Below, piece after piece: positions 10,739 to 63,387 of a DNA stretch of 64,000 nt (the first letter of the stretch is position 1; each line of letters starts with the position of its first letter). The notes beneath the pieces were generated by a model that was not told the DNA's origin, searched no databases, and saw only the letters and a program-made list of their open reading frames with translations. This DNA comes from an uncultured Methylomirabilota bacterium (GTDB lineage: Bacteria; Methylomirabilota; Methylomirabilia; Methylomirabilales; 2-02-FULL-66-22): the NCBI GenBank assembly GCA_963727695.1, contig CAVSHW010000039.1:7770-71769 (forward strand), written 5' to 3'. A program made the translations under genes and the position numbers.

Positions 10739-10793
10739 CTCTCAATCCCTCCAGTAATATCGGTCCCACCCCGAGCCAGATGTCCGTGCCTAA

Positions 10794-10984
10794 CAGGATG
10801 CTGAAAGACTCACTTTTCGGCAGGCTGCTCAAAAGGGCCCAGATGCTAGGCGGCCCGCGAAGGGCGGGGTACCCACCGCGGGTGGGTCCAGGCGTACTTC
10901 CGGTACGCCGCAGCGAGTGCCCGAGCAAGCGGGGTACCCAGCCGCCGGCTGGGTCCCCGCAGATGGGCCCTTTTCAGCAGCCTG
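10794..10984 (+). repeat. Nested-palindrome repeat family 1, copy A
   Basis: CAGGCTGCTCAAAAGGGCCCAGATGC...GGCGTACttccgGTACGCCGCAGCGAGTGC...GCAGATGGGCCCTTTTCAGCAGCCTG. A degenerate outer motif lies at 10794-10810. The right end abuts the glgP stop codon. Confidence 0.9.
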
Positions 10985-13516
<2,532 letters not shown>

Positions 13517-19727: not shown

Positions 19728-19900
19728 CAGCAGGCTGCTGAAAAACCCGATTTCGCCCAGGCTGCTCAAAAAGGTCCAGATGCGAGGCGGCGCGCGATGG
19801 GCGGGGTACCCACCAGAGGTGGGTCCAGGCGTACACTGGGTACGCCGCAGCGAGTGCCCAAGCGCGACAACGCTGCAGATGGGCCTTTTTCAGCGGCCTG
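19728..19900 (+). repeat. Nested-palindrome repeat family 1, copy B
   Basis: Outer CAGCAGGCTGCTGAAAAACC, inner CAGGCTGCTCAAAAAGGTCCAGATGC, apical GGCGTACactggGTACGCC, right arm GCAGATGGGCCTTTTTCAGCGGCCTG. Confidence 0.9.
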
Positions 19901-19914
19901 TTAGAAGGACAGCG

Positions 19915-23368: not shown

Positions 23369-23518
23369 ATGGCGTTCACCGCGATCAAGCTGCCGTTGCT
23401 CAGCGTCGTGCGGTCCCACTCGCTCGTGGGCATGACCGTCTTCGCGCGCCTGGCGGGAGCCCTGGCTGTCCGACTCCGGTACACCGACACCGAGTTGCGC
23501 ACCCTCTCCGAGTCCTAG
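23369..23518 (+). CDS. Doubtful 49-aa ORF
   Basis: Own reading: MAFTAIKLPLLSVVRSHSLVGMTVFARLAGALAVRLRYTDTELRTLSES. No clear RBS. Its TAG lies 1 nt from repeat copy C. Confidence 0.2.
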   Translation: MAFTAIKLPLLSVVRSHSLVGMTVFARLAGALAVRLRYTDTELRTLSES

Positions 23519-23519
23519 G

Positions 23520-23689
23520 CAGGCTGCTGAAAAAGGCCCATCTGCTGCGTTGGCTTGCTTAGGCACTCGTTGCGGCGCACCCCAGTACGCCTCACTCGGC
23601 CTCGGGTACCCATCCAACAGGATGGGTGCGCCGCCTTGCATCTGGACCTTTTTGAGCAGCCTGAGCAAAGCGATCTATCAGCAGCCTGC
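23520..23689 (-). repeat. Nested-palindrome repeat family 1, copy C (inverted orientation)
   Basis: The reverse complement has the same architecture as B and D, including the outer motif. Apical hairpin GGCGTACtggggTGCGCC. Confidence 0.9.
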
Positions 23690-23938
23690 TATATGCCTAT
23701 CCCGCCGTCGATGGAGATGCTCGCGCCATTCATGAAGGCGGCCTCGTCTGAGGCCGCGAACAGGATGGCGGCGGCGATCTCCGATCCGTGCCCAGCCGGC
23801 CCATGGGCTGGCGCGCGATGAAGTCCGCCCTGGATTTCTCGGGATCGGCAAAGGCCTGGATCCGCCGCCCCCGTGCTTTCGCATCTCCGGAATCGCGTGT
23901 TTCGAGACCAGGAAGGGCCCTTTCAGGTTGACCGCCAT
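23689..23938 (-). pseudogene. Remnant of an SDR oxidoreductase
   Basis: Three frames on the minus strand carry NLKGPFLVSKHAIPEMRKHGGG, then IQAFADPEKSRADFIARQPMGRLGT, then EIAAAILFAASDEAAFMNGASISIDGGIGI-stop. The N-terminus and catalytic middle are missing. Confidence 0.65.
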
Positions 23939-24763: not shown

Positions 24764-24796
24764 GACGTCTCCCCTCTCGGCTACTTGGCTTCCCAT

Positions 24797-24949
24797 AGCA
24801 GGCTGCTGAAAAACCTGTTTCGCCCAGGCTGCTCAAAAAGGTCCAGATGCAAGGCGGAACGCGCAGAGCCGAGTGAGGCGTACTCCAGGTACGCCGCAAC
24901 GAGTGCTCGAGTGTTCCAACGCCGCAGATGGGCCTTTTTCAGCAGCCTG
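24797..24949 (+). repeat. Nested-palindrome repeat family 1, copy D
   Basis: AGCAGGCTGCTGAAAAACC...CAGGCTGCTCAAAAAGGTCCAGATGC...GGCGTACtccagGTACGCC...GCAGATGGGCCTTTTTCAGCAGCCTG. Abuts the arfB stop. Confidence 0.9.
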
Positions 24950-25375
24950 TTAGTCGTCGATCACCCCGGGCGGCTTTCTGGTCTGTTTTGCCTGCCCGTG
25001 CCGGCGTTTCGTCTCCAGCCGGCGCACTCTCGACGCCCTCGATGGCTTGGTCTCCCTCCGCGGCTTCGGCTTCTCGACGGCCTTGCGAACCAGCAGCACG
25101 AGCCGGTCGATCGCATCCCGGCGGTTCGCCTCTTGCGTCCGGAACCGCCTGGCCTCGATGGAGAGCATCCCGTCCTGTCCGACTCGTCTGCCCGCCAGAC
25201 CCAGCAGCCGCGCACGAACCTCTTCCGGCAGGGAGGGGCAAGCACGGACGTCGAACCGCAGGCGCACCGCCGTCGACACCTTGTTGACGTTCTGCCCCCC
25301 GGGACCGGAAGCCCGGAGGAACTCGAAGCGGAGCTCCCCTTCATCTATGGCGATGCTGTCGTTGATCTGGATCAT
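24950..25375 (-). CDS. arfB: Alternative ribosome-rescue factor ArfB (peptidyl-tRNA hydrolase, GGQ)
   Basis: FLRASGPGGQNVNKVSTAVRLRFD plus a basic C-terminal tail. 141 aa. Confidence 0.9.
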   Translation of the reverse strand: MIQINDSIAIDEGELRFEFLRASGPGGQNVNKVSTAVRLRFDVRACPSLPEEVRARLLGLAGRRVGQDGMLSIEARRFRTQEANRRDAIDRLVLLVRKAVEKPKPRRETKPSRASRVRRLETKRRHGQAKQTRKPPGVIDD

Positions 25376-50539: not shown

Positions 50540-50710
50540 GATGGCTCTTCCCTTTCCGGCCTCTACCGAACGCACCTCACAACAAATCCACCCGCCCACC
50601 GCCGCGGCATGAACGCACGAAGACCCGTCCGAGGATGCCGCAGAGCCGGCCCCGCCGTCAAGGGAAACCGGGCTCGGACAGGGCTGGAAGGGACGGTCGT
50701 ACGGAAGGGC

Positions 50711-50752
50711 TTGATGAGTGGCAACTCGTGGAGTATTACTCTTACCGGTAAG
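50711..50752 (+). promoter_or_regulatory. vapB promoter and palindromic operator
   Basis: TTGATG (50711-16), a 17-nt spacer, TATTAC (50734-39), then the perfect 12-bp palindrome CTTACCGGTAAG (50741-52) and a GGAGG RBS. Confidence 0.5.
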
Positions 50753-50765
50753 AATGGAGGCTACT

Positions 50766-50993
50766 ATGAAAGTCACGACGAAGGGACAGGTCACCATCCC
50801 CCTGGAGATTCGCGAGCGGCTCTCCATTCACCCCGGCACCGATGTAGAGTTCGTGGTGGAAGGCAATGTGGTGCGGCTCGTCCCCGCGCGGAAGAGTCAA
50901 GTGCGGGGCAAGCGGATTGTTGAGCGTCTGCGCGGTCGGGCCACGGTCCGCATGACAACCGACGAGATCATGGCGCTCACACGGGGCCGGTGA
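50766..50993 (+). CDS. vapB: AbrB/SpoVT-fold antitoxin (VapB-like)
   Basis: MKVTTKGQVTIPLEIRERLSIHPGTDVEFVVEGNVVRLVP is a swapped-hairpin AbrB motif. The stop overlaps the next start (GTGATG). Confidence 0.85.
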   Translation: MKVTTKGQVTIPLEIRERLSIHPGTDVEFVVEGNVVRLVPARKSQVRGKRIVERLRGRATVRMTTDEIMALTRGR

Positions 50994-51399
50994 TGGCAGG
51001 AACTCTGGTGGACAGCAAGTCATCTGGACGTGCTCACCGAGGATGCCCGGTGGTATGCGTGGTCGTCCAACGCCCTGGCGCAGTGCGCCAACGCGGGGCC
51101 CTTTACATCAATCCGATCATCTATGCGGAGGTCTCGATCGGCGTCGCGACCATCGAGGAAATGGAGGAGGTGCTTCCCGCAGAGTCGTTCCCCCGGCTCC
51201 GATCCCACTCGAAGCGGCGTTCTGGCCGGGAAAGCCTCCTGCGATACGAAGAAGGAAGGGAACCAAGATCACCCCCTTGCCCGACTTCTTCATCGGCGCC
51301 CACGCCGCGGTGGCCGGACTACAACTGCTCACGCGGGATAGCCGGCGCTACCGGACCTACTTCCCTTCAGTAAGAGTCATCGCCCCCGGTCGCAGGTGA
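50990..51399 (+). pseudogene. vapC: PIN-domain toxin (VapC-like), multiply frameshifted
   Basis: Pieces in all three frames: MAGTLVDS / LDVLTEDARWYAWSSNALAQCANAGP / LYINPIIYAEVSIGVATIEEMEEVLPAESFPRL / PIPLEAAF...KITPLPDFFIGAHAAVAGLQLLTRDSRRYRTYFPSVRVIAP. At least 3 frame switches. Confidence 0.75.
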
Positions 51400-51538
51400 C
51401 CGTCCTGCCCCACCGCCTCCTCGCCGCGCCACTCCCCTGAAATAGGTCCCGGACACCTATTGGGAGCTACCCGTTGATTTACCACATGAACGATTTCAAT
51501 TTCCCCAAGTGATGGCGATGCGCAGCGATGTGGGCCAG

Positions 51539-52078
51539 TTACTGTAACCCTGCCATTCCGGGAAACAGCCAGAAATAGCCGATCAGGATGACAAACACCC
51601 CACCGAGAATCCACGGGGCCCGGGCCTGCAGCTGATCCGTTTGGGCGAGTCCTGTCGCCAGCCCCACCACGATCAACACCACCAAGTCGAAGTCGCCGGT
51701 CCAGCGGAGGACGAAATCATGGTCGCTCCACGGCCACAATAGTCGGAGCGGCCAGACCGCAATCAGATCCCCTAGCAGATGCACCGCGAATCCCACCAGA
51801 TTCAGCACCAACAGCCGTGGGAAGGAAATACCTCTCCCCCAGCACCGCTCGACCCCAGCCAACACCAGCGCTAGGACGGCTCCACCGAGCAACGTATGCG
51901 TATAGGCGTGGTGGAAGCGCCCATAGACCTCTGGCCCCCACAGGTAACTGATAGCATCCACATCCGGCGCAAAGGCCGCCAGTCCCAGCACCAGCAGCGT
52001 CTTTCTCCGCACCGCAGGAGGCGGCCGGAGTGCCTGGCCGATCAATATGCCGGAGCAGGTATGCGTGAGCGGATCCAT
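51539..52078 (-). CDS. YdjM/DUF457-like membrane-bound metal-dependent hydrolase
   Basis: MDPLTHTCSGILIGQAL..., His-rich loops, 5 TM. Intact. Confidence 0.8.
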   Translation of the reverse strand: MDPLTHTCSGILIGQALRPPPAVRRKTLLVLGLAAFAPDVDAISYLWGPEVYGRFHHAYTHTLLGGAVLALVLAGVERCWGRGISFPRLLVLNLVGFAVHLLGDLIAVWPLRLLWPWSDHDFVLRWTGDFDLVVLIVVGLATGLAQTDQLQARAPWILGGVFVILIGYFWLFPGMAGLQ

Positions 52079-52147
52079 GTTCGCCTCACCGGGGCTGACG
52101 GTTTGACTGCGGCAAGGGCAGACACCTCATCGGTGCTCACCCGCAAC

Positions 52148-54147
52148 TCACGGGTGGGGCGGATTCGCTGCGAGAGTTTCCAGGGCAGCCCGGACCCCGG
52201 ACCTGAAGCCTTCTCGGTCTGCCGCGCCGATCCCCTCCGGGTCGAAACGATAGCGATAATGGAGTGACACGAGCGCGCGCAACGAGTCTGTGGTCACGGG
52301 AAGGATGTGAGTTGCCTCGATCCGCTGTACTCACCCTGCGAGTGGCTCCCACGGGTTTCGACCCAGTCCGATCGCGCTCAGTTGCCTTTCGAGTACATAG
52401 AAATCGGAATCTTCCCCCGGCCACACGGGGCGGCTGGGCGTGTGTTGCCGCCCCGTGTAGGGAAGGGCAACCCGTTTGGCGGCGTAGAACCTCCAAGCGA
52501 CTAGGAGACCTAACGGGATCAACAGCCAGGCAACCGAGAGTCTCCCGACGGTTTCCCCATTGTCCCGCCACCACTCGGAGACCTGAAACATGGCCCACGA
52601 CCACAGGTCGAAGATGGGCTGCCGCCATGACGCGGCCTCTTGTTCGGCCTCGACCCACGAAGCCGGAGTGGTATCGAGCGCCTGCCAGGCCCCGTCCACA
52701 TAGGCGAGCGCCCACGCATGGGCGTGCCGGTGACGCACGACGTACCGATTCTCCAGCCGGCTGAATTCCTGGACGGCATAGCCGGTCGCATAGCGCGCGG
52801 GAATGCCTGCCTGCCTGAGGAGCAGCACCGTCGCGGTGGCGAAGTATTCACAGTGTCCGGAGCGGGACCGAAGGAGGAACTCTTCCAGCGGGGAGGCGGG
52901 GACCGGTCGGTCGGGCTGAAACAGCGAATACCGGAAGCGCTGCGCGAAATACTCGCTGATGGTCCGGAGCGCCTCAGGGGGCGATACGGATGGGAGCCCC
53001 AACTCCATGCTGATCCGAGAGATGAGGGGAGCCTCGCCATGGGGCACGCTCAGATCGGCTGCGTCCGGGGGTGTCCCGTGAGTCGCGCGAGGATCGAAGA
53101 GGACCCGATAGCCCGCGAAGCTCGGTCCGTCCTTCACCTTTACGGTGCCGAAGCGGTTGTGTTGCATATCTGCGACGGGTAGTCGCTCGATCCGCAACGT
53201 CCCCTCCGGGAGGGGGAGGACTCCCTTTCCACCCGTCAGCGGCGCAAGAACCGTCAGGCTTCGGCTGGGCCCGGTGCCAGGGTAAAGCTCCCAGGTGCTT
53301 CCATCCGGTTCAGGGGGAACGGCCTCAAACCCCGCCTCTGCGGCCGACCAAAAGGAGGATCCATAGCGATTGTAGGTAGCCGCCGCAAGAGAAACGGCAC
53401 CGGCACCCCGGAGGTTTTCACACGGAACGCAATCGCGTCAGAGAGCTTTAGGGTGCCGATGTGACCAATGGCCGTAGAGCTTCGAAACGGATCCGCCTCG
53501 CCGCCACTGCCGGTATCGAAGAGCCACCTGATGAGCTGGGGCTCGAACGCTTGCTGCATCATCTGGAGCCCGACATGCCCCGCGTATCCCAGGGCGCCGG
53601 CAGAGACGAGCAGGGCGCCCCAGACGAGGGAAGGATACAGCGTAGGTCTGATACTCCACAGCGCCCACGCCGAAAGCAGACAGAGCCCCGGGTAGAACCA
53701 GGGGCCCCTCACGTTCGCCGCAGACGCGGCCAAGAGCACGATGGCGAGGTAGGGGTAGGAGGGGGCGATGGTCGCGCGCGGCCGGTGCTCCGTGGGATGT
53801 CTGGCCGTTCCGGATGAGAAGAATAGTCTCCCCGCCTCGACCGACCCGGCGGCGTCATACGCGCTCCCGACGATGAGGGGTAGAACGGTCAGCGGGTACA
53901 GCGAGAGCGCGACCAGAATGGCGCGCAGCGTATCCACGGTCGACAGGAGATACACCAGGATGACTGCCTGCACCAGGGCGCAGAGATTCCGGAGGCGGTC
54001 CACATCATGCCGGGAGAGTTCCCAGCGCCACGTGACGACGCGGGACCCCTCGAGGGGCAGGGCGAGGAGCGCCGCCCCCACGAGGAACCCCGTGTGCCAT
54101 CCCCAGAAGAGCAGCGCTGCGGCGAGCAGGAGGGGCGGGGTCGTCAT
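52148..54147 (-). pseudogene. TgpA-like transglutaminase membrane protein: one frameshift (about 53378-53386) and an in-frame TGA (52331-52333)
   Basis: N-part is ORF 53254..54147 (polytopic, ...IGTLKLSDAIAFRV...PFLLR). It continues one frame over (AATYNRYGSSFW...) into ORF 52331..53197, which carries the core SGHCEYFATATVLLLRQAGIPARYATGY. After the TGA, 60 more in-frame codons read VQRIEA...LRALVSLHYRYRFDPEG (DUF4129-like tail) to a stop at 52148. Confidence 0.8.
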
Positions 54148-55494
54148 AGCCGTGCCAGCGCCTCCGCGATCCTGCCGACCTCGAGCCTATGGAGCCACGC
54201 CGGCGTCTGCATCTCCGGATCAGACATGGCGCTGCGAGGACGGGAAGGGTGAACGATGAGGAAGACGACCGTGGGGACCCCGAGCCGGTGGAGATGGGTG
54301 ACAAACCGCTGCCGGTCGGCGCTCCACGAGAGGAGGACGCAGATGCATCCGCTCAGCGATCCGCCCCGTTCGGTCACCAGGCGGTGGAGCGCCTCGAATG
54401 ACTTGTCCATGCAGGGTTGGACGTAGGCCAGGATCTCCATTAGGTGGTCCGTCTGGCCCAACCCCCGTCCGGCCGTGACGCAGTATGCCTGCGGCCCCAC
54501 GAACATCAGATCGAGTAGGGACTCCTGGGTGAGGACGGTACAGGCAAAGGAGGCGGCCACGGAGACGGCGTCTTCGAACACCTCACCGTCGTCCGCGCTC
54601 AGGAACGTATCCAGGACCAGCGCGTGGCGCACGAAAAATTCTTCCTGGTACTTCTTTACGATCGGCTTTCCGGTCCGGGCCCAGCTCCTCCAGTGGATGC
54701 GGCGCAGCGGATCGCCCGGGCGGTACTCCCGCAACGCGACGAATTCCTCCGAATCCCCGACCGGTGACGCCAGGGCGACTCGTCCATGCTGGTAAGCCCG
54801 GCTGTCGGGGAGCTGCATGGCGGGCAGGGGGTAGCGTTTGGGGAGGATCAGGACGGATTGGCCCAGGGACAGCGTGGCCAGGGCCCGGGAGAGACCGAAC
54901 GGATCGAAACGGGCCGCCGTCACGCCGGTGAATCCCAGCCTTCCTCGTCGTGCGGCGTGAGATCGCGCCGCAGCTCAACCTCGCCGCCGGGAGAAAGCAC
55001 GGGGAGCGATTGCTCGCCACCCATGGTGACCTCGTTTTGCGACACCAGCCAACGGTATCGATAGTACCCCAGCGCACGGTTGAACCAGTTCGCCGCTCCT
55101 CCCCCGGCTCTCTGGCGCGGACGAACGCGTGCAGGGATGGTCTGGGGTCGGCGAGATCGTCCAGCAGTATCAGCCCGCGGAGGGTCTTCGAGCCGGTGTT
55201 TCGCACCTGCAGGCGATACGGAAGCAGTTGGCCCACGGTCCCGAATCGCGGCAGGATACGCCGAACCGTGAGGCGCGGTCGGAAGAACGCGCTGCACAGG
55301 AGAGAAATCACCAGGAGGGAGAGGAGGAAGGTGAAGGCCTGATAGGCCATGGTGAGGCTGATGTGCGCGCCAAGGAGGGCCGATGCGCCAAGCCCGGTCA
55401 CGATCAGGAGTCCGCCCTGGGTGAAGCGTCGCCTCATCCGCCATTGGACGCTGGATTGGAGTTGATAATTGGCGTACAGAAATCGTGTAAACAT
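54144..55494 (-). pseudogene. DUF58 (vWA-like) protein, two frameshifts (about 55088-55091 and 54920-54926)
   Basis: Three frames: MFTRFLYANY...VRAREPGEER / (R)NWFNRALGYYRYRWLVSQNE...EEGWDSPA / (V)TAARFDPFGLSR...EFVALREYRPGDPLRRIHW. Confidence 0.8.
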
Positions 55495-55498
55495 CTGG

Positions 55499-56480
55499 CT
55501 ACGCCGGCACGGGGACCTTTCGGACGATGTCGGCCACGATCATCTGGGCCGTTGTCCCCGAGAAACGGGCCTGGGGATCGATGACCATGCGATGGGCGAT
55601 CGTCGGGACGGCGATTTCCAGGATATGCTCAGGGGTCACAAACTCCCGGCCATCCAAGAGGGCGAGGGCCTGAGCGGTTTTCATCAACGCGAGAGAAGCG
55701 CGCGGGCTGGCGCCCAACTGCACCCCCGGCGCAGCTCTGGTCTCTTGGACGACATCGACGACGTACCGCTTCAGCTCCGAGCTGATCCGCACCTCCTTGA
55801 CGGTGTGTCGCAGGACTAGGACGTCCTCCATGGATACGCAGGCGGCTATCGAGTCTATCGGATGGCTTTTCTCTTGCGCCGACAGGATGGCAACCTCCAT
55901 CTCAGGTGGCACATACCAAGGCCGAACTGAAGTGCAAAACGGTCCATCTGGGCCTCGGGGAGGGGATAGGTCCCCCGAAATTCAACTGGATTCTGAGTCG
56001 CGATGACAAAAAAGAGTTCCTCAAGGCGGTGGGCTTTGCCTCGATGCTGATCTGGCTCTCTGCCATGGCCTCAAGCAGCGCGGATTGTGTTCTGGGCGAG
56101 GCGCGATTGATCTCATCGGCCAACAGGATATTGGTGAAGATCGGCCCTGCGTGGAAATGGAAGGCCTGCGCTTTCTGATCATAGACGGACACGCCCAGGA
56201 TGTCCGATGGCAGTAGGTCAGGTGTGAATTGAATGCGCGTGAATCGAGCGCCGATCGACAGCGCGAGGGCCTTTGCCAGGGTTGTCTTGCCGGTTCCGGG
56301 ATAATCTTCCAGAAGGACATGGCCTCCACCGGCAAAAGCCGCCAGCAGTTTTCGAATCGCAGCCGATTGTCCTTTCATCACGTTCTCGATGTTCGCGGCA
56401 ATCTTTTGGAGCGTCTCTCTGGGGGGCAAGTGGGACGATGTGGTCATCTCAGCCTCGCTGCGAAAGACCCCTTGACTCAT
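55499..56480 (-). pseudogene. moxR: MoxR-family AAA+ ATPase, two frameshifts (about 56018-56024 and 55913-55918)
   Basis: HVLLEDYPGTGKTTLAKAL (Walker A) and [22 protein letters not shown] (Walker B). Then [35 protein letters not shown] lies in a second frame and [10 protein letters not shown]...LGASPRASLALMK in a third. Confidence 0.85.
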
Positions 56481-56592
56481 AGTTGTGTGCTCTGACGGGT
56501 GAAGCGCGGGAGGATCGCGTCGGCGTCCGCGATCCCCGGCCGGAGCGCGGTGGCGAACTTGAGGAGATCGTCATTCTGCGAGTGGAGTGGCC

Positions 56593-57351
56593 CTACTCGC
56601 CGGTCCGAGGCCAGGAGCCATACAGCGTGGAGTAGCCGACAGAGCCATCCTCCCCGGTGTTGAGGGTAAACGGACGAGGATAGGTTCCCGTGCCCTGCGG
56701 GCCCTTGCTGTAGATATACACATCATCACCGTCTCCTGGCTTGGCACCCGATGTAAGCACCGGGGCAAGCACGTAGGGATTCCCCCAGTGATCGATATCG
56801 GGGACGTTGGCGTAGCCTGAGTCACGCAACACCTTCAGGCTGGTTGGGTAGATGTGCTTGTCATTTGCGTAAACGATCGCCTGCGTCACCGCGGTCTTCG
56901 TGTCGGACTTGGCGCGGAGGAGGTGGAAGGCCGGTGTATCCCAGGAACTCTGGATCAAGCGCTGCTCAGACGAGGCGAGCCAACCGACCTGGTGAATGAT
57001 GCCGGCACTGGCGATGGTCAAGCAAAAGACGAGCACGAGCCCGCCCAGGCCTAGAAGTGTCCAGCGCAACGGCCAGCGCCGGCCCGCCGTCTCGGTCGTC
57101 GGCGGGCGATTGTAGAAAGAGCCCGCCAGCCACTGGCCAAGGCAGACCACCGCAGCCGCCAGGACGCCGGCGACGGCGATGCCGCTCAGGCTCGGCTGCA
57201 TCTGGGGGAGGACCCGCCCGAGGAACGCGATCCACCCGAAAGCGAGCGTGATCGGCACCTCGAACACGAAGACCATCCCGAGACCGCCGGTGATCAGGAG
57301 CAGCAGGAAGATAAGGCCGGCGATGCCGATCCATCGTATCGCGCGCTTCAT
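56593..57351 (-). CDS. Polytopic membrane protein with C-terminal pseudopilin (T2SS GspG-like) domain, no prepilin signal
   Basis: Start MKRAIRWIGIAGLIFLLLLI at 57351. About 4 TM, then KSDTKTAVTQAIVYANDKHIYPTSLKVLRDSGYANVPDIDHWGNPYVLAP...DDVYIYSKGPQG (compare GspG ...YPT...GY...P.DPWGNPY...). Confidence 0.7.
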   Translation of the reverse strand: MKRAIRWIGIAGLIFLLLLITGGLGMVFVFEVPITLAFGWIAFLGRVLPQMQPSLSGIAVAGVLAAAVVCLGQWLAGSFYNRPPTTETAGRRWPLRWTLLGLGGLVLVFCLTIASAGIIHQVGWLASSEQRLIQSSWDTPAFHLLRAKSDTKTAVTQAIVYANDKHIYPTSLKVLRDSGYANVPDIDHWGNPYVLAPVLTSGAKPGDGDDVYIYSKGPQGTGTYPRPFTLNTGEDGSVGYSTLYGSWPRTGE

Positions 57352-57743
57352 GGGGTGCCCTGCCCGAGCGCCGCGCGGATCTGGTCGATGGTTGTGAGCT
57401 CGATGGCCCCGTTGGCCCGGAGCACCAGCCGCTCCCGGCCGACCGTGCCGGGCTCGTAGGCGACCGGCCGGACGCCCTGGTCCGCGCTCTGCCCGGCAAT
57501 GTAGACGTAGGGCGCGCCGCCCGGCCCCTGCCAGGCTGCCTCGGGAAGCTCTGCGACGAACTCGCTGGGGGGGAAGCGCCCCCCGTGCGCCGCGGCATAG
57601 GCCCAGAGTCGCCAGCGGAAGGCCTCGAGGCGCCCGCGGCGGTCCGGTCCGGGCGGCTCCGGCGGCGTGTTGGCGAGATGGTAGGTCGCGCCCTGCTTCG
57701 TCCACGCGCCGGGCGTCATCAGCTCGCGCGCGCCTGCGATCAT
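57348..57743 (-). CDS. Hypothetical protein, translationally coupled (ATGA) to the pseudopilin-domain gene
   Basis: Track ORF of 131 aa. The N-terminus may be truncated: the frame is open upstream through a TM-like FSAAFYLVLV without a start codon. Confidence 0.45.
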   Translation of the reverse strand: MIAGARELMTPGAWTKQGATYHLANTPPEPPGPDRRGRLEAFRWRLWAYAAAHGGRFPPSEFVAELPEAAWQGPGGAPYVYIAGQSADQGVRPVAYEPGTVGRERLVLRANGAIELTTIDQIRAALGQGTP

Positions 57744-58269
57744 GACCAGGACGAGATAGAACGCAGCCGAGAAGCGTGACCATGGCTAAGGCGCGGCGAA
57801 AGCCCAAGGCCGGCAGGTGCGGGAAGTCCTTGCGCAGCGCCGCACAGCCCGAGGACGCAGCACGCAACCAGCAGGATGACGAGGAGGAAGAACGAGATCA
57901 CCTCGAGGCGCAGGTGGGCGAGTTCGGTAGGCTAAAGAAAGGCATGCCTGCCAGGCGTCGCTGGAAGAGCGAGACTGAGGCCGAACGCGAATGGTAACAG
58001 CGTGCGCCGGGAGCGGTCGATCGCCGATGCGGGATTCGATCGACCCTGGGGGTCATCGCATTCGCTGGGGACTCGACCGAAGTAAGCAGGATTTTCGCCT
58101 CATGCTGCTCCTCCTTGCGGCTTCGCGTCTCGCGTCCGTCGGGTCGGGCCGGAGTATCCGGCGATCTGGATAGCTGTAAGGGAAAGATGGACGCCGGAGG
58201 AAGGGTCGGGCGGGTTTCGGAATAACGGTTTGAGGGCCGAACTTCGTGATTACGCGGCAAGGATTGGTC

Positions 58270-58347
58270 GGGCGGGCTGTGGGCTGGACCGGGCCAGAGG
58301 CCTGGGTGCGTCAGGATCTTCGCGATGACCTCGGGCTGTATGTGCGC
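58270..58347 (-). mobile_element. Short remnant of an IS91-family transposase C-terminus
   Basis: Minus-strand frame of ORF 57898..58578 reads AHIQPEVIAKILTHPGLWPGPAHSPP. It resembles the recalled IS91-type tail ...AILEQPVIEKILTHLGLQARAPPRAP. No catalytic domain is present. Confidence 0.45.
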
Positions 58348-58504
58348 GCCATCAGACTTCATTCGCCGTTCGCGGGGTACCCGTTGCTGTCCGGTCCGCA
58401 ACGGCTCGCACCACGTGAGGGAGTTCGTTCCGTCGAGGATACCGCAGGAACCCCTGCGGTGACTGGCCCGAGACCGCGCGCCACGCTGTCCGTGAACCGC
58501 GCGG

Positions 58505-59251
58505 CTATCTCGTGAAGATCGTCCCGCGCATGTAATCGGCGTCGGGGGAGGCCAGGAAAGCCAGGATGCGCGCGACACCCATGGGATCCCCCGCCTCGCG
58601 CACCGCCTCGGCCCGGGCCTGCTCGATGTCGCGGCCGGCGGCGCGGGCCCGGTCCACCAGGTTCTCGATCCGCATGGGGGTCGCGATGCTCGACGGGCAG
58701 ATCTCGTTGACGCGAATGCCGTGCGGCGCGAGCTGCGCCTCCAGCGTCATGGTGAAGCCGTGCACGCCCCCCTTGCTGGCGCCGTAGGCCAGCGATGAGC
58801 TGGGGATCTTGGTCCCCGCCTCCGAGGCCAGACACAGCACCACGCCCTTCTCCGCCTTGCGGAGGAGGGGCAGGGCCGCCTTCACCGTGAGAAAGGTCCC
58901 CTTCAGGTTGACATCGAGGACGCTCTCGAAGGTGGCCTCGTCCAGCGCCTCCGCCTGCAGCGTGGCGCCTCGCAGGATCCCCGCGCAGCAGATGACCACG
59001 TCCAGCTTGCCATGCCGCTCGGCGGCCGTCGCCGCCAGCCGAACGCAGTCCGCCTCTTTCGTGATGTCGGTGCGGACAAAGACGGCGTCGCCGCCGGCCG
59101 CCCGGATGGCCGCCGCCATGGCCTCGCCTTCCGCCTCCAGCATGTCGCCGATGACGACCTTGCCCCCCTCGCCGGCAATGGCCTGCGCGGTCGCCGCGCC
59201 GATCCCGCGGCCGCCCCCGGTGATGATGACCACTCGGTCTTGCAATCGCAT
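58505..59251 (-). CDS. SDR-family oxidoreductase (FabG-like)
   Basis: VVIITGGGRGIGAATA and YGASKGG (YxxxK). 248 aa. Confidence 0.9.
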   Translation of the reverse strand: MRLQDRVVIITGGGRGIGAATAQAIAGEGGKVVIGDMLEAEGEAMAAAIRAAGGDAVFVRTDITKEADCVRLAATAAERHGKLDVVICCAGILRGATLQAEALDEATFESVLDVNLKGTFLTVKAALPLLRKAEKGVVLCLASEAGTKIPSSSLAYGASKGGVHGFTMTLEAQLAPHGIRVNEICPSSIATPMRIENLVDRARAAGRDIEQARAEAVREAGDPMGVARILAFLASPDADYMRGTIFTR

Positions 59252-62141: not shown

Positions 62142-62277
62142 GAGATTTTCCTCCAGAGTGAATTCCTTGCCGATGGCGCCTCGAGTGTTCCGGCGGACGT
62201 CCTCCGCACAACACGGGGGTGAGTGCCCGACCACCTCCTTCCGAATCCCAGGTGTGTCTAGATAACTCGTCTTCACC

Positions 62278-62402
62278 CAGGCTGCTCAAAATGGCCCAGA
62301 TGCAAGGCGGAACGCGAAGGGCCGAGCGAGGCGTACTCCAGGTACGCCGCAGCGAGTGCTCAAGCGGTCCAACGCCGCAGATGGGCCGTTTTCAGCAGCC
62401 TG
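62278..62402 (+). repeat. Nested-palindrome repeat family 1, copy E (shortest)
   Basis: CAGGCTGCTCAAAATGGCCCAGATGC...GGCGTACtccagGTACGCC...GCAGATGGGCCGTTTTCAGCAGCCTG. 1 nt from the permease stop. Confidence 0.9.
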
Positions 62403-62403
62403 C

Positions 62404-63387
62404 TCAACTGGTCTCGCTGGCCAGGGCCTTCCGGGCCCACTGATCCACGAGCACGGCGACGATGATCAAGGCTCCCAGGACCACCCCCTGCCACACGGAC
62501 TCGATGCCCAGCAGGTTCATGCCGTTCTGCACGATGGTCATGATGAGCGCCCCGATCAGCGTGCCCACGATCCCGCCCTCTCCCCCGAAGAGGCTGGTGC
62601 CGCCAATCACCACGGCGGCAATCGCGGGCAGGAGCATGTTGGCGCCGATCCCCGCCTCCGACGCATTGAGGCGCGCCACGTAAACCAGCCCGGCGGCCGC
62701 GGCCAGCAGTCCGCTCAGGGTGTAGGCCAGGATGAGTGTCTGATCTTTCTTCACGCCCGAGAGGCGGGCCGCCTCTTGGTTGGCGCCCACCGCATAGAGC
62801 GCCCGGCCAAAGGTGGTGTGCCGCAGGAGCAGATAGGCGGGGATCCAGAGCACCGCCATGAGGATGATCGGCATGGGGACGCCCAGGAGGTTTCCCACGC
62901 CCAGGAAACGGAAGTCGTCCTTGAACCCGTAGATCACCTGCCCCTTGAGCAGGACCACCGAGAACCCGAAGGCCACCCACATCATGCCGTAGGTGGCGAT
63001 GAAGGGGGGCAGCTTCACCACGGCCACCATCAGCCCGTTCAGGAACCCCAGCCCCGCGCCCACCACCAGGCCGGCGGCCAGCGCCAGCGGGAGGGGGACG
63101 CCGGTCTTGATCGCCACGGCGGCGATGACGCTGGAGAAGGTCAGCACCGCGCCGATGGAAAGGTCGATGCCGGCTGTCAGGATGACAATGGTCTCGCCGA
63201 TGCCCAGGATAACCAGGAGGCTGGCCACGCGCAGGACATTCAGGGCGTTGGTACCGGTGAAAAAGACCGGCGAGGCCGCCGTCAGGACGATGCACAGCAG
63301 ACCCAGCACGAAGAGCCGGGAACCGGTATACAGGATGCGGGGGTCTAGGCGCCACCCGCGGGGCTTGACGTCTGCGGCGCTGGTCAC
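62404..63387 (-). CDS. Sugar ABC transporter permease (RbsC type)
   Basis: GTG at 63387 overlaps the upstream stop (GTGA). NALNVLRVASLLVILGIGETIVILTAGIDLS. Confidence 0.9.
   Translation of the reverse strand: MTSAADVKPRGWRLDPRILYTGSRLFVLGLLCIVLTAASPVFFTGTNALNVLRVASLLVILGIGETIVILTAGIDLSIGAVLTFSSVIAAVAIKTGVPLPLALAAGLVVGAGLGFLNGLMVAVVKLPPFIATYGMMWVAFGFSVVLLKGQVIYGFKDDFRFLGVGNLLGVPMPIILMAVLWIPAYLLLRHTTFGRALYAVGANQEAARLSGVKKDQTLILAYTLSGLLAAAAGLVYVARLNASEAGIGANMLLPAIAAVVIGGTSLFGGEGGIVGTLIGALIMTIVQNGMNLLGIESVWQGVVLGALIIVAVLVDQWARKALASETS

Follow-up and report, generated by a model that had tools for sequence, protein, structure and literature searches.

Operons in which a MoxR-type AAA+ ATPase, a DUF58 protein and a membrane transglutaminase with a DUF4129 tail are neighbours are known as the Bat-operon type of Bacteroides and from Pseudomonas aeruginosa, where TgpA has MoxR and DUF58 neighbours. 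The locus described here has the same gene order, but the likeness only names the cargo of a genomic island, and the operon itself shows nothing unusual. What calls for explanation is that genes of this island are broken by single-base lesions. Young pseudogenes in accessory islands likewise show frameshifts and a stop in non-essential genes, the toxin gene of a toxin-antitoxin pair included. Unlike them, the lesions here are common to no relative and are accompanied by neither large deletions nor insertion sequences; their spectrum does not resemble spontaneous mutation, and near-identical DNA is intact in independent assemblies.

Indel errors of long-read assemblies (Nanopore, Flye/Medaka-type) offer a second comparison. 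Low-coverage nanopore bins are known to retain frameshifting indels (PMC9262707), and the IDEEL test measures the gene-call fragmentation caused by residual indels in long-read assemblies and MAGs (Sereika et al. 2022, PMC9262707). Such errors share with our locus single-base indels that break otherwise conserved genes, their absence when the same DNA is assembled from short reads or k-mers, the involvement of essential genes elsewhere in the genome, and a worsening where support is thin, for instance in strain-variable segments. The island departs from the typical case in that its lesions do not lie in long homopolymers, are deletions only among indels, are strongly biased to one DNA strand, and reach a density (~37 per 10 kb) at the level of raw reads. 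We consider it very likely that the breaks arose as consensus errors in a metagenome assembly, concentrated in a strain-variable 7.8-kb island, and not through gene decay.

The window is the whole 64,000-nucleotide stretch analysed, from a contig of an uncultured Methylomirabilota bacterium. In G013, the closest relative searched, window positions 50622 and 58430 lie only 38 nt apart on a single contig (C23:18674/18712), which makes this an empty site; it has one copy of an imperfect direct repeat, of which the window carries one copy at each island end. A search for exact repeats at the ends returned none because the copies are imperfect. Judged from sequence comparison, 50623-58429 is a genomic island, present in some and absent from other close relatives and with repeat-flanked ends; no integrase was found for the 7.8-kb segment. 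Its features are as follows.

50623..58429, no strand: accessory island, delimited by the empty site in G013 and containing the dense lesions of 50670-58357
50625..50643, plus strand: left copy of the imperfect ~19-nt direct repeat, CCGTCCGAGGATGCCGCAG, at the island edge, read by eye
50718..50993, plus strand: vapB antitoxin (AbrB/MazE fold), intact; Pfam PF04014, E 1.3e-10
50993..51399, plus strand: vapC, PIN-domain toxin of the toxin-antitoxin pair, broken; from frameshift-aware alignment to the PIN homologue P0005 (137 aa) and L031
51539..52078, minus strand: ydjM-family membrane protein, intact; Pfam PF04307, identical in three assemblies
52148..54147, minus strand: TgpA-like transglutaminase, broken; base missing at 53383, TGA at 52331-52333
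54144..55494, minus strand: DUF58 protein, broken; C missing at 54953 and at 55090, frames -2/-1/-3
55499..56480, minus strand: MoxR-type AAA+ ATPase (AAA_3 and AAA_lid_2), broken; C missing at 55915 and 56038, frames -3/-2/-1
56593..57351, minus strand: 252-aa membrane protein with no assigned family, intact; identical in all assemblies
57348..58103, minus strand: gene of a 254-aa protein with no assigned family, broken; nine single bases missing at 57764-58078
58104..58429, no strand: non-coding right island end; deletions at 58171, 58177, 58233, 58260 and 58357
58430..58447, plus strand: right copy of the direct repeat, CCGTCGAGGATACCGCAG, one C fewer than in G013

Frame breaks were located by tblastn with the orthologues of the relative G018, in which MoxR (326 aa), DUF58 (450 aa) and TgpA (681 aa) are intact, and base-level positions were set by alignment to near-identical contigs. 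Both procedures bear out the counts of an earlier note on this DNA: two frameshifts in MoxR, two in DUF58, and one plus a nonsense codon in the TgpA-like gene. Pfam families (AAA_3 with AAA_lid_2, DUF58, Transglut_core with DUF4129) and gene order confirm the three genes as an adjacent, co-oriented operon. For vapC, said to have at least three frame switches, the damage goes further: comparison with 137-aa homologues indicates six bases missing at five places (near 51018, 51023, 51091, 51199, 51219 and 51236), all C or T on the plus strand. The copy on L031 has a single break only, and the gene is absent by outright deletion in G013 and G018. The lesions were thought to occupy 50990-56480; the dense zone in fact extends over 50670-58357 and includes the 254-aa gene, whose nine losses are eight C and one T on the plus strand and whose frame switches were recovered at the same sites by a codon-usage Viterbi procedure. 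ydjM is intact as claimed, but is not alone in this: vapB and the 252-aa gene are also unbroken. An IS91 remnant proposed to flank the segment on the right found no backing in Pfam, the ORF at 57898-58578 giving 0 families.

The contigs used for comparison represent a different strain or sample: they are nearly identical to the window across the island core and 3-8% different in the flanks. Two Logan contigs of run ERR11594402, L032 and L033, span window positions 51323-55035 and 55102-58334, and match it base for base between 51500 and 58078, the lesions excepted (about 99.9% identity across the island core). All window indels and the TGA are absent from them: the codon at 52331-52333 is TGG in the other assemblies, L032 encodes an intact TgpA of 666 aa with Transglut_core and DUF4129, L033 an intact MoxR of 316 aa and an intact 254-aa gene, and both ends of DUF58 are present without a break. 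The ydjM protein has an exact match on L031 and L032. A third contig, L031 (ENA ERZ25039480:contig_74663), also retains the bases missing from the window and has indels of its own in the same genes at different sites (54137, 55144, 55555, 55690 and 57894), which are absent from the Logan contigs. No lesion is shared between the window and L031, L032, L033 or G018. In another sister assembly, ERZ25039519, rpoC, rpsL, fusA, tuf and rplP are fragmented. True strain divergence looks unlike the island lesions, since the flanking SDR gene differs between the window and L031 by 20 synonymous and 7 non-synonymous codon changes with zero indels.

Alignment to the near-identical contigs places essentially all dense lesions of the window inside the island, whose 7.8 kb contain about 29 indels of one base each. 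The earlier note had asked whether indels are equally dense genome-wide. They are not: the background is ~0.8 per 10 kb, ~40-fold below the island, though it is itself abnormal and affects EF-G. The excess over background has a Poisson P of ~1e-37 for the island and of 3e-5 for the three-gene operon alone. All 29 island indels are single-base deletions, with 0 window-specific insertions, and in 26 of the 29 the lost base is a pyrimidine on the plus strand (P = 2e-6); T rather than C is lost in ten, and losses of C outnumber those of G 13:1 in the island core. Substitutions show a similar preference, 9 of 12 being at C, three of them C>G. The bias tracks the DNA strand and not the coding strand, vapC lying on the plus and the operon on the minus strand. 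Among spontaneous mutations indels are a minority, whereas here they exceed substitutions by about 16:12. Lesions are arranged in bursts of about 130-300 nt, leaving 51500-52204 and 56039-57763 free; under a uniform error rate such gaps have an estimated P of about 0.001. Of the earlier proposal that bases were lost from homopolymer runs of 2-4 nt, the single-base loss stands, and the link to homopolymers holds loosely at best: runs at island lesion sites measure 1-3 nt, and 5 of the 11 genome-wide junctions checked have no run of at least 4 nt. A methylation-type motif was also considered and rejected, as the contexts share no motif; T before C is frequent, yet ten deletions are of T.

The rest of the genome is affected as well. 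Among 142 sampled orthologues we counted 11 distinct frameshifts (about 7% of genes), and fusA, the EF-G gene of the rpsL-rpsG-fusA-tuf str operon, carries an extra C (+1) that is unique among six assemblies. The window core has five frame breaks, every one a +1 insertion relative to G013. The lesion-free contrast region of the earlier note holds up, with no frame break detected at 10.8-21.1 kb, where comparison with G013 gives five small indels of unassigned position relative to genes. A second lesion-dense island, at C57:26.8-35.9 kb, contains 24 insertions of one base, of which 22 are of a purine, in a stretch that in G013 is an intact ORF of 1060 aa. rRNA was discarded as the source of this hot spot, the only 16S gene found being on C31. 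The Viterbi procedure is a reference-free frameshift caller that recovered the known breaks; it yields 0.55-2.2 frameshift candidates per 10 kb in relatives. As its filter, based on the distance to the next stop, favours +1 events and also fires in relatives, it was used for hot spots and not for rates.

Consensus error is thus supported by clean independent assemblies, by an unnatural spectrum, by the coincidence of lesions and island, and by assembly-type errors elsewhere in the genome. One technical cause covers three patterns: the island deletions, the purine insertions of C57 and the sparse +1 insertions of the core. The source assembly is most likely of the long-read type, a platform suggested by the error type and by the sister assemblies ERZ25039480 and ERZ25039519, both in the style of Flye. 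None of the papers searched mentions these two accessions or ERR11594402, and the Microflora Danica Nanopore project (PMC12313526) is named here as no more than a guess at what sort of data these are. Read support within the island was probably thin or ambiguous; we infer low local depth. Consensus building would have dropped or miscalled individual bases, for the most part plus-strand C or T, so that the island genes look dead; at a guess, a consensus resting on a single read or a handful of reads, all of the same orientation, would fit. In the organism itself, the vapBC pair, ydjM, the MoxR-DUF58-TgpA operon and the genes of two membrane proteins are most likely all intact. Of the two readings offered by the earlier note, the first was error in a region of low coverage or strain variability, and it agrees with the absence of the island from G013 and with the near-identical contigs free of lesions, the low coverage being our deduction.

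The second reading, genuine decay, sees a recently acquired island under relaxed selection in which vapC, TgpA, DUF58, MoxR and the 254-aa gene are young pseudogenes, and we regard it as improbable. The segment is indeed an accessory island missing from G013, ydjM and the 252-aa gene are free of lesions as if spared by selection, and the deletion of vapC in both G013 and G018 makes loss of the toxin gene plausible in the lineage. Exact look-ups of the window's broken DUF58 fragment, SDR allele and vapB allele matched no other contig, so no contig of its own strain was found to contradict the lesions, and the divergent flanks of the comparison contigs, from another strain or sample, leave room for real, strain-specific lesions. 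The seven substitutions of known polarity (2 synonymous and 5 non-synonymous, a small sample) fit random error and neutral decay equally. Against decay, the 29:0 ratio of deletions to insertions, the 26:3 one-strand pyrimidine bias, the presence of C>G changes and the preponderance of indels over substitutions are unlike known spontaneous spectra. Alignment and Pfam searches revealed no large deletions or IS elements in the island. EF-G is broken in the same genome, the other island has the opposite spectrum of purine insertions, and the sister assembly has independent lesions in the same genes that are contradicted by contigs derived from raw reads. The earlier leaning towards at least partial biological decay loses its supports: beside the IS91 remnant, the nonsense codon belongs to the strand-biased set of C changes, and the 10-bp duplication reported elsewhere (35.33 kb) is one extra C inside a tandem repeat also present in G013.

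Far less probable is strand-coordinated cytosine damage, according to which conjugation or transformation brought the island in as a single strand, or a DNA deaminase acted on it. Processing or bypass of uracil and abasic sites would then have produced clustered C>T, C>G and C loss on one strand and a kataegis-like inactivation of the cargo. Such changes do occur on the plus strand in bursts of the length given above, T precedes 5 of the 9 C substitutions, and a near-identical core between divergent flanks fits recent transfer. Yet T is lost in ten deletions, the scheme covers this one pattern and neither the purine insertions of C57 nor the sparse +1 insertions of the core, and dozens of -1 deletions caused by deamination would, to our knowledge, be without precedent. 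That the frames are restored or switched by programmed recoding, RNA editing or phase variation is hardly credible: the regularity with which the lesions involve one base is all that speaks for it, the sites have no slippery heptamers or long simple-sequence tracts and are spread over six genes, both strands and non-coding DNA, and the bases are simply present in near-identical DNA elsewhere.

With consensus error as the preferred reading, the main import of the locus is a warning on data quality. Accessory islands of this species-representative genome carry errors at raw-read level, in this island and at least one other, and EF-G is miscalled as well; counts of pseudogenes, inferences of gene loss and protein sets taken from it will therefore be wrong in strain-variable regions. 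Exact-protein look-ups of adjacent intact genes can fetch independent contigs and so settle error against decay without reads, and a bias of the lesions in base and strand flags consensus error cheaply and with little dependence on a reference. At the two ends of the island, the true start of vapB is likely the ATG of MKVTTKG, and the non-coding right end contains a diverged hairpin at 58214-58246.

The cluster of broken genes in the window's accessory island (50623-58429) is most probably not a real biological feature. The genome under study, G000, from which the window is C39:7770-71769, comprises 65 contigs totalling 4.18 Mb (65% G+C, completeness 95.5%, contamination 5.3%), and the damaged zone contains the following genes:

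within 52.1-56.5 kb, - strand, MoxR-type AAA+ ATPase (AAA_3 and AAA_lid_2)
within 52.1-56.5 kb, - strand, DUF58 protein
within 52.1-56.5 kb, - strand, TgpA-like transglutaminase
+ strand, vapB/vapC
left of the MoxR-DUF58-TgpA operon, ydjM

Intact orthologues of the operon exist in G018, a relative of the same genus (MoxR 326 aa, DUF58 450 aa, TgpA 681 aa; DNA identity 75%). Placed onto the window by tblastn, these proteins follow frames -3/-2/-1 for MoxR and -2/-1/-3 for DUF58, in agreement with the two frameshifts that the earlier note had read in each gene, and -2/-1 for TgpA, where an in-frame TGA at 52331-52333 accounts for the nonsense codon noted beside a single frameshift. vapC, for which at least three frame switches had been counted, lacks six bases at five places relative to 137-aa PIN homologues. 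On the strength of these frame paths, the TGA and the vapC losses, the observation of genes broken by single-base lesions is correct, and it is here confirmed and extended. A 254-aa gene present on Logan contigs is broken in the window by nine single-base losses (57764-58078).

The lesions follow the limits of the island. In the relative G013, whose flanks are 91-96% identical, window positions 50622 and 58430 lie only 38 nt apart, and an imperfect direct repeat of ~19 nt that marks the edges of the 7.8-kb island is present as a single copy. All dense lesions (50670-58357) fall inside.

Exact-protein look-ups with ydjM, rightly described before as intact, and an intact 252-aa neighbour retrieved three further contigs:

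L031, ENA ERZ25039480:contig_74663, 9.2 kb
L032, Logan contig of run ERR11594402, spanning window 51323-55035
L033, Logan contig of run ERR11594402, spanning window 55102-58334

From 51500 to 58078 all three equal the window base for base except at the lesion sites, and none carries any of the window's indels or its TGA; the Logan contigs encode full-length TgpA (666 aa) and MoxR (316 aa). L031 has distinct lesions of its own in the same genes (54137, 55144, 55555, 55690 and 57894), none of which recurs in L032 or L033 of the same run, and in a sister public metagenome assembly, ERZ25039519, rpoC, rpsL, fusA, tuf and rplP are in fragments. Breaks of this kind in this assembly family are therefore demonstrably technical, and the ERZ25039519 series appears error-laden throughout. 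One of its contigs (L036, ERZ25039519:contig_64887), aligned to G000, needs 42 gap openings over 15 kb. At 58214-58246 the window and other assemblies differ in a block (TTCGG...CCGAA versus CCCCG...CGGGG) that resembles compensatory hairpin substitutions.

The island core is near-identical to the ERR11594402 strain, and the flanks are 3-8% different. The flanking SDR gene differs by 20 synonymous and 7 non-synonymous codons and by no indel, a sign of true divergence. Near-identical contigs free of the window's lesions, and dense lesions confined to an accessory island, uphold the proposal that a region varying between strains was poorly assembled here.

Strain-specific decay of the island genes is unlikely, though not negligible: the comparison contigs come from another strain, lesions are patchy (none in 51500-52204 and 56039-57763) and vapC is deleted in two relatives, but none of the three near-identical contigs carries the window's lesions. 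Patchiness itself may be technical; conjecturally, polishing would have mended the sequence only in places, or reads shared between strains would have been ambiguously assigned. In those relatives (L059, G013:C245:829-1142; L060, G018:C141) the vapB homologue is kept and the adjoining vapC is cut to ~90 nt, leaving an orphan antitoxin.

The 29 single-base deletions in the island comprise 16 C, 10 T, 2 G and 1 A on the + strand, a bias to pyrimidines (P = 2e-6) that reaches 13:1 for C versus G in the core; the contig alignment revealed no window-specific insertions in the island. C is the base changed in nine of the 12 substitutions, to T in six and to G in three. Since vapC (+ strand) loses coding-strand pyrimidines and the operon (- strand) template-strand pyrimidines, the bias tracks the DNA strand. 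Lesions lie in runs of 1-3 nt, and core indels outnumber substitutions by about 16:12. Mutation-accumulation studies show that indels make up the lesser share of spontaneous mutations and gather at longer runs, and that C>G changes are rare. A consensus built from very few reads in a single orientation would fit this spectrum. Neither the contig comparison nor the lesion spectrum supports the earlier lean to partial biological decay.

For the rest of the genome, 400 kb of sequence from three relatives supplied ORFs as queries against G000. Among the 142 orthologues (148 kb), 11 distinct frame changes were found, a rate of about 0.8 per 10 kb, and nine were of the +1 type. The rate that this test gives for long-read relatives (1-7 contigs) is 0.4-1.3 events per 10 kb, and low-coverage nanopore bins are documented to retain frameshifting indels (PMC9262707). 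In G000, 15.4 kb of the rpoBC-str-S10 region has one frame-breaking indel against five independent assemblies: an extra C at G000:C57:51869 shifts the frame of fusA (EF-G) in the rpsL-rpsG-fusA-tuf operon, and is absent from the five, whose S7 protein is identical. Two tuf copies (G000:C57:36671-37917 and 53371-54573) are ~98-100% identical over the compared parts. Outside its island the window has five frame breaks (9817, 27476, 35333, 49148 and 60860), each of them a +1 insertion when compared with G013; what had been taken for a 10-bp duplication, at 35.33 kb, is a single extra C within a tandem repeat native to G013 as well.

Two further hot spots were found. The first (L045, G000:C57:26833-35887, ~9 kb) adjoins tRNA genes and tuf and is not at that site in G013, whose paralogous copy (91% identity) has an intact 1060-aa ORF; against it, the island has a single extra base at 24 places, a purine in 22 of them (14 G, 8 A, 2 C, 0 T). 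The second (L046, G000:C29:13561-26506, ~12.9 kb), absent between adjoining flanks in G013, has the densest frame switching of the codon-usage scan, which alone defines it; no reference copy for confirming its lesions was found. Three regimes thus emerge, each strand- or type-biased: sparse +1 insertions in the core, dense -1 deletions in the window's island and dense +1 insertions in the C57 island. One technical cause fits all three and no single mutational process does, so that a strand-coordinated cytosine-damage event, kept in view for the same reasons as decay, is very improbable.

Two families of dispersed repeats (~130-200 nt), both MITE- or REP-like, have dozens of copies in G013 at 86-98% identity, and two copies contain an 18-nt indel. 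In the window they occur at:

62258-62404 and 24790-24953
also 10790-10990, 19729-19908 and 23500-23690
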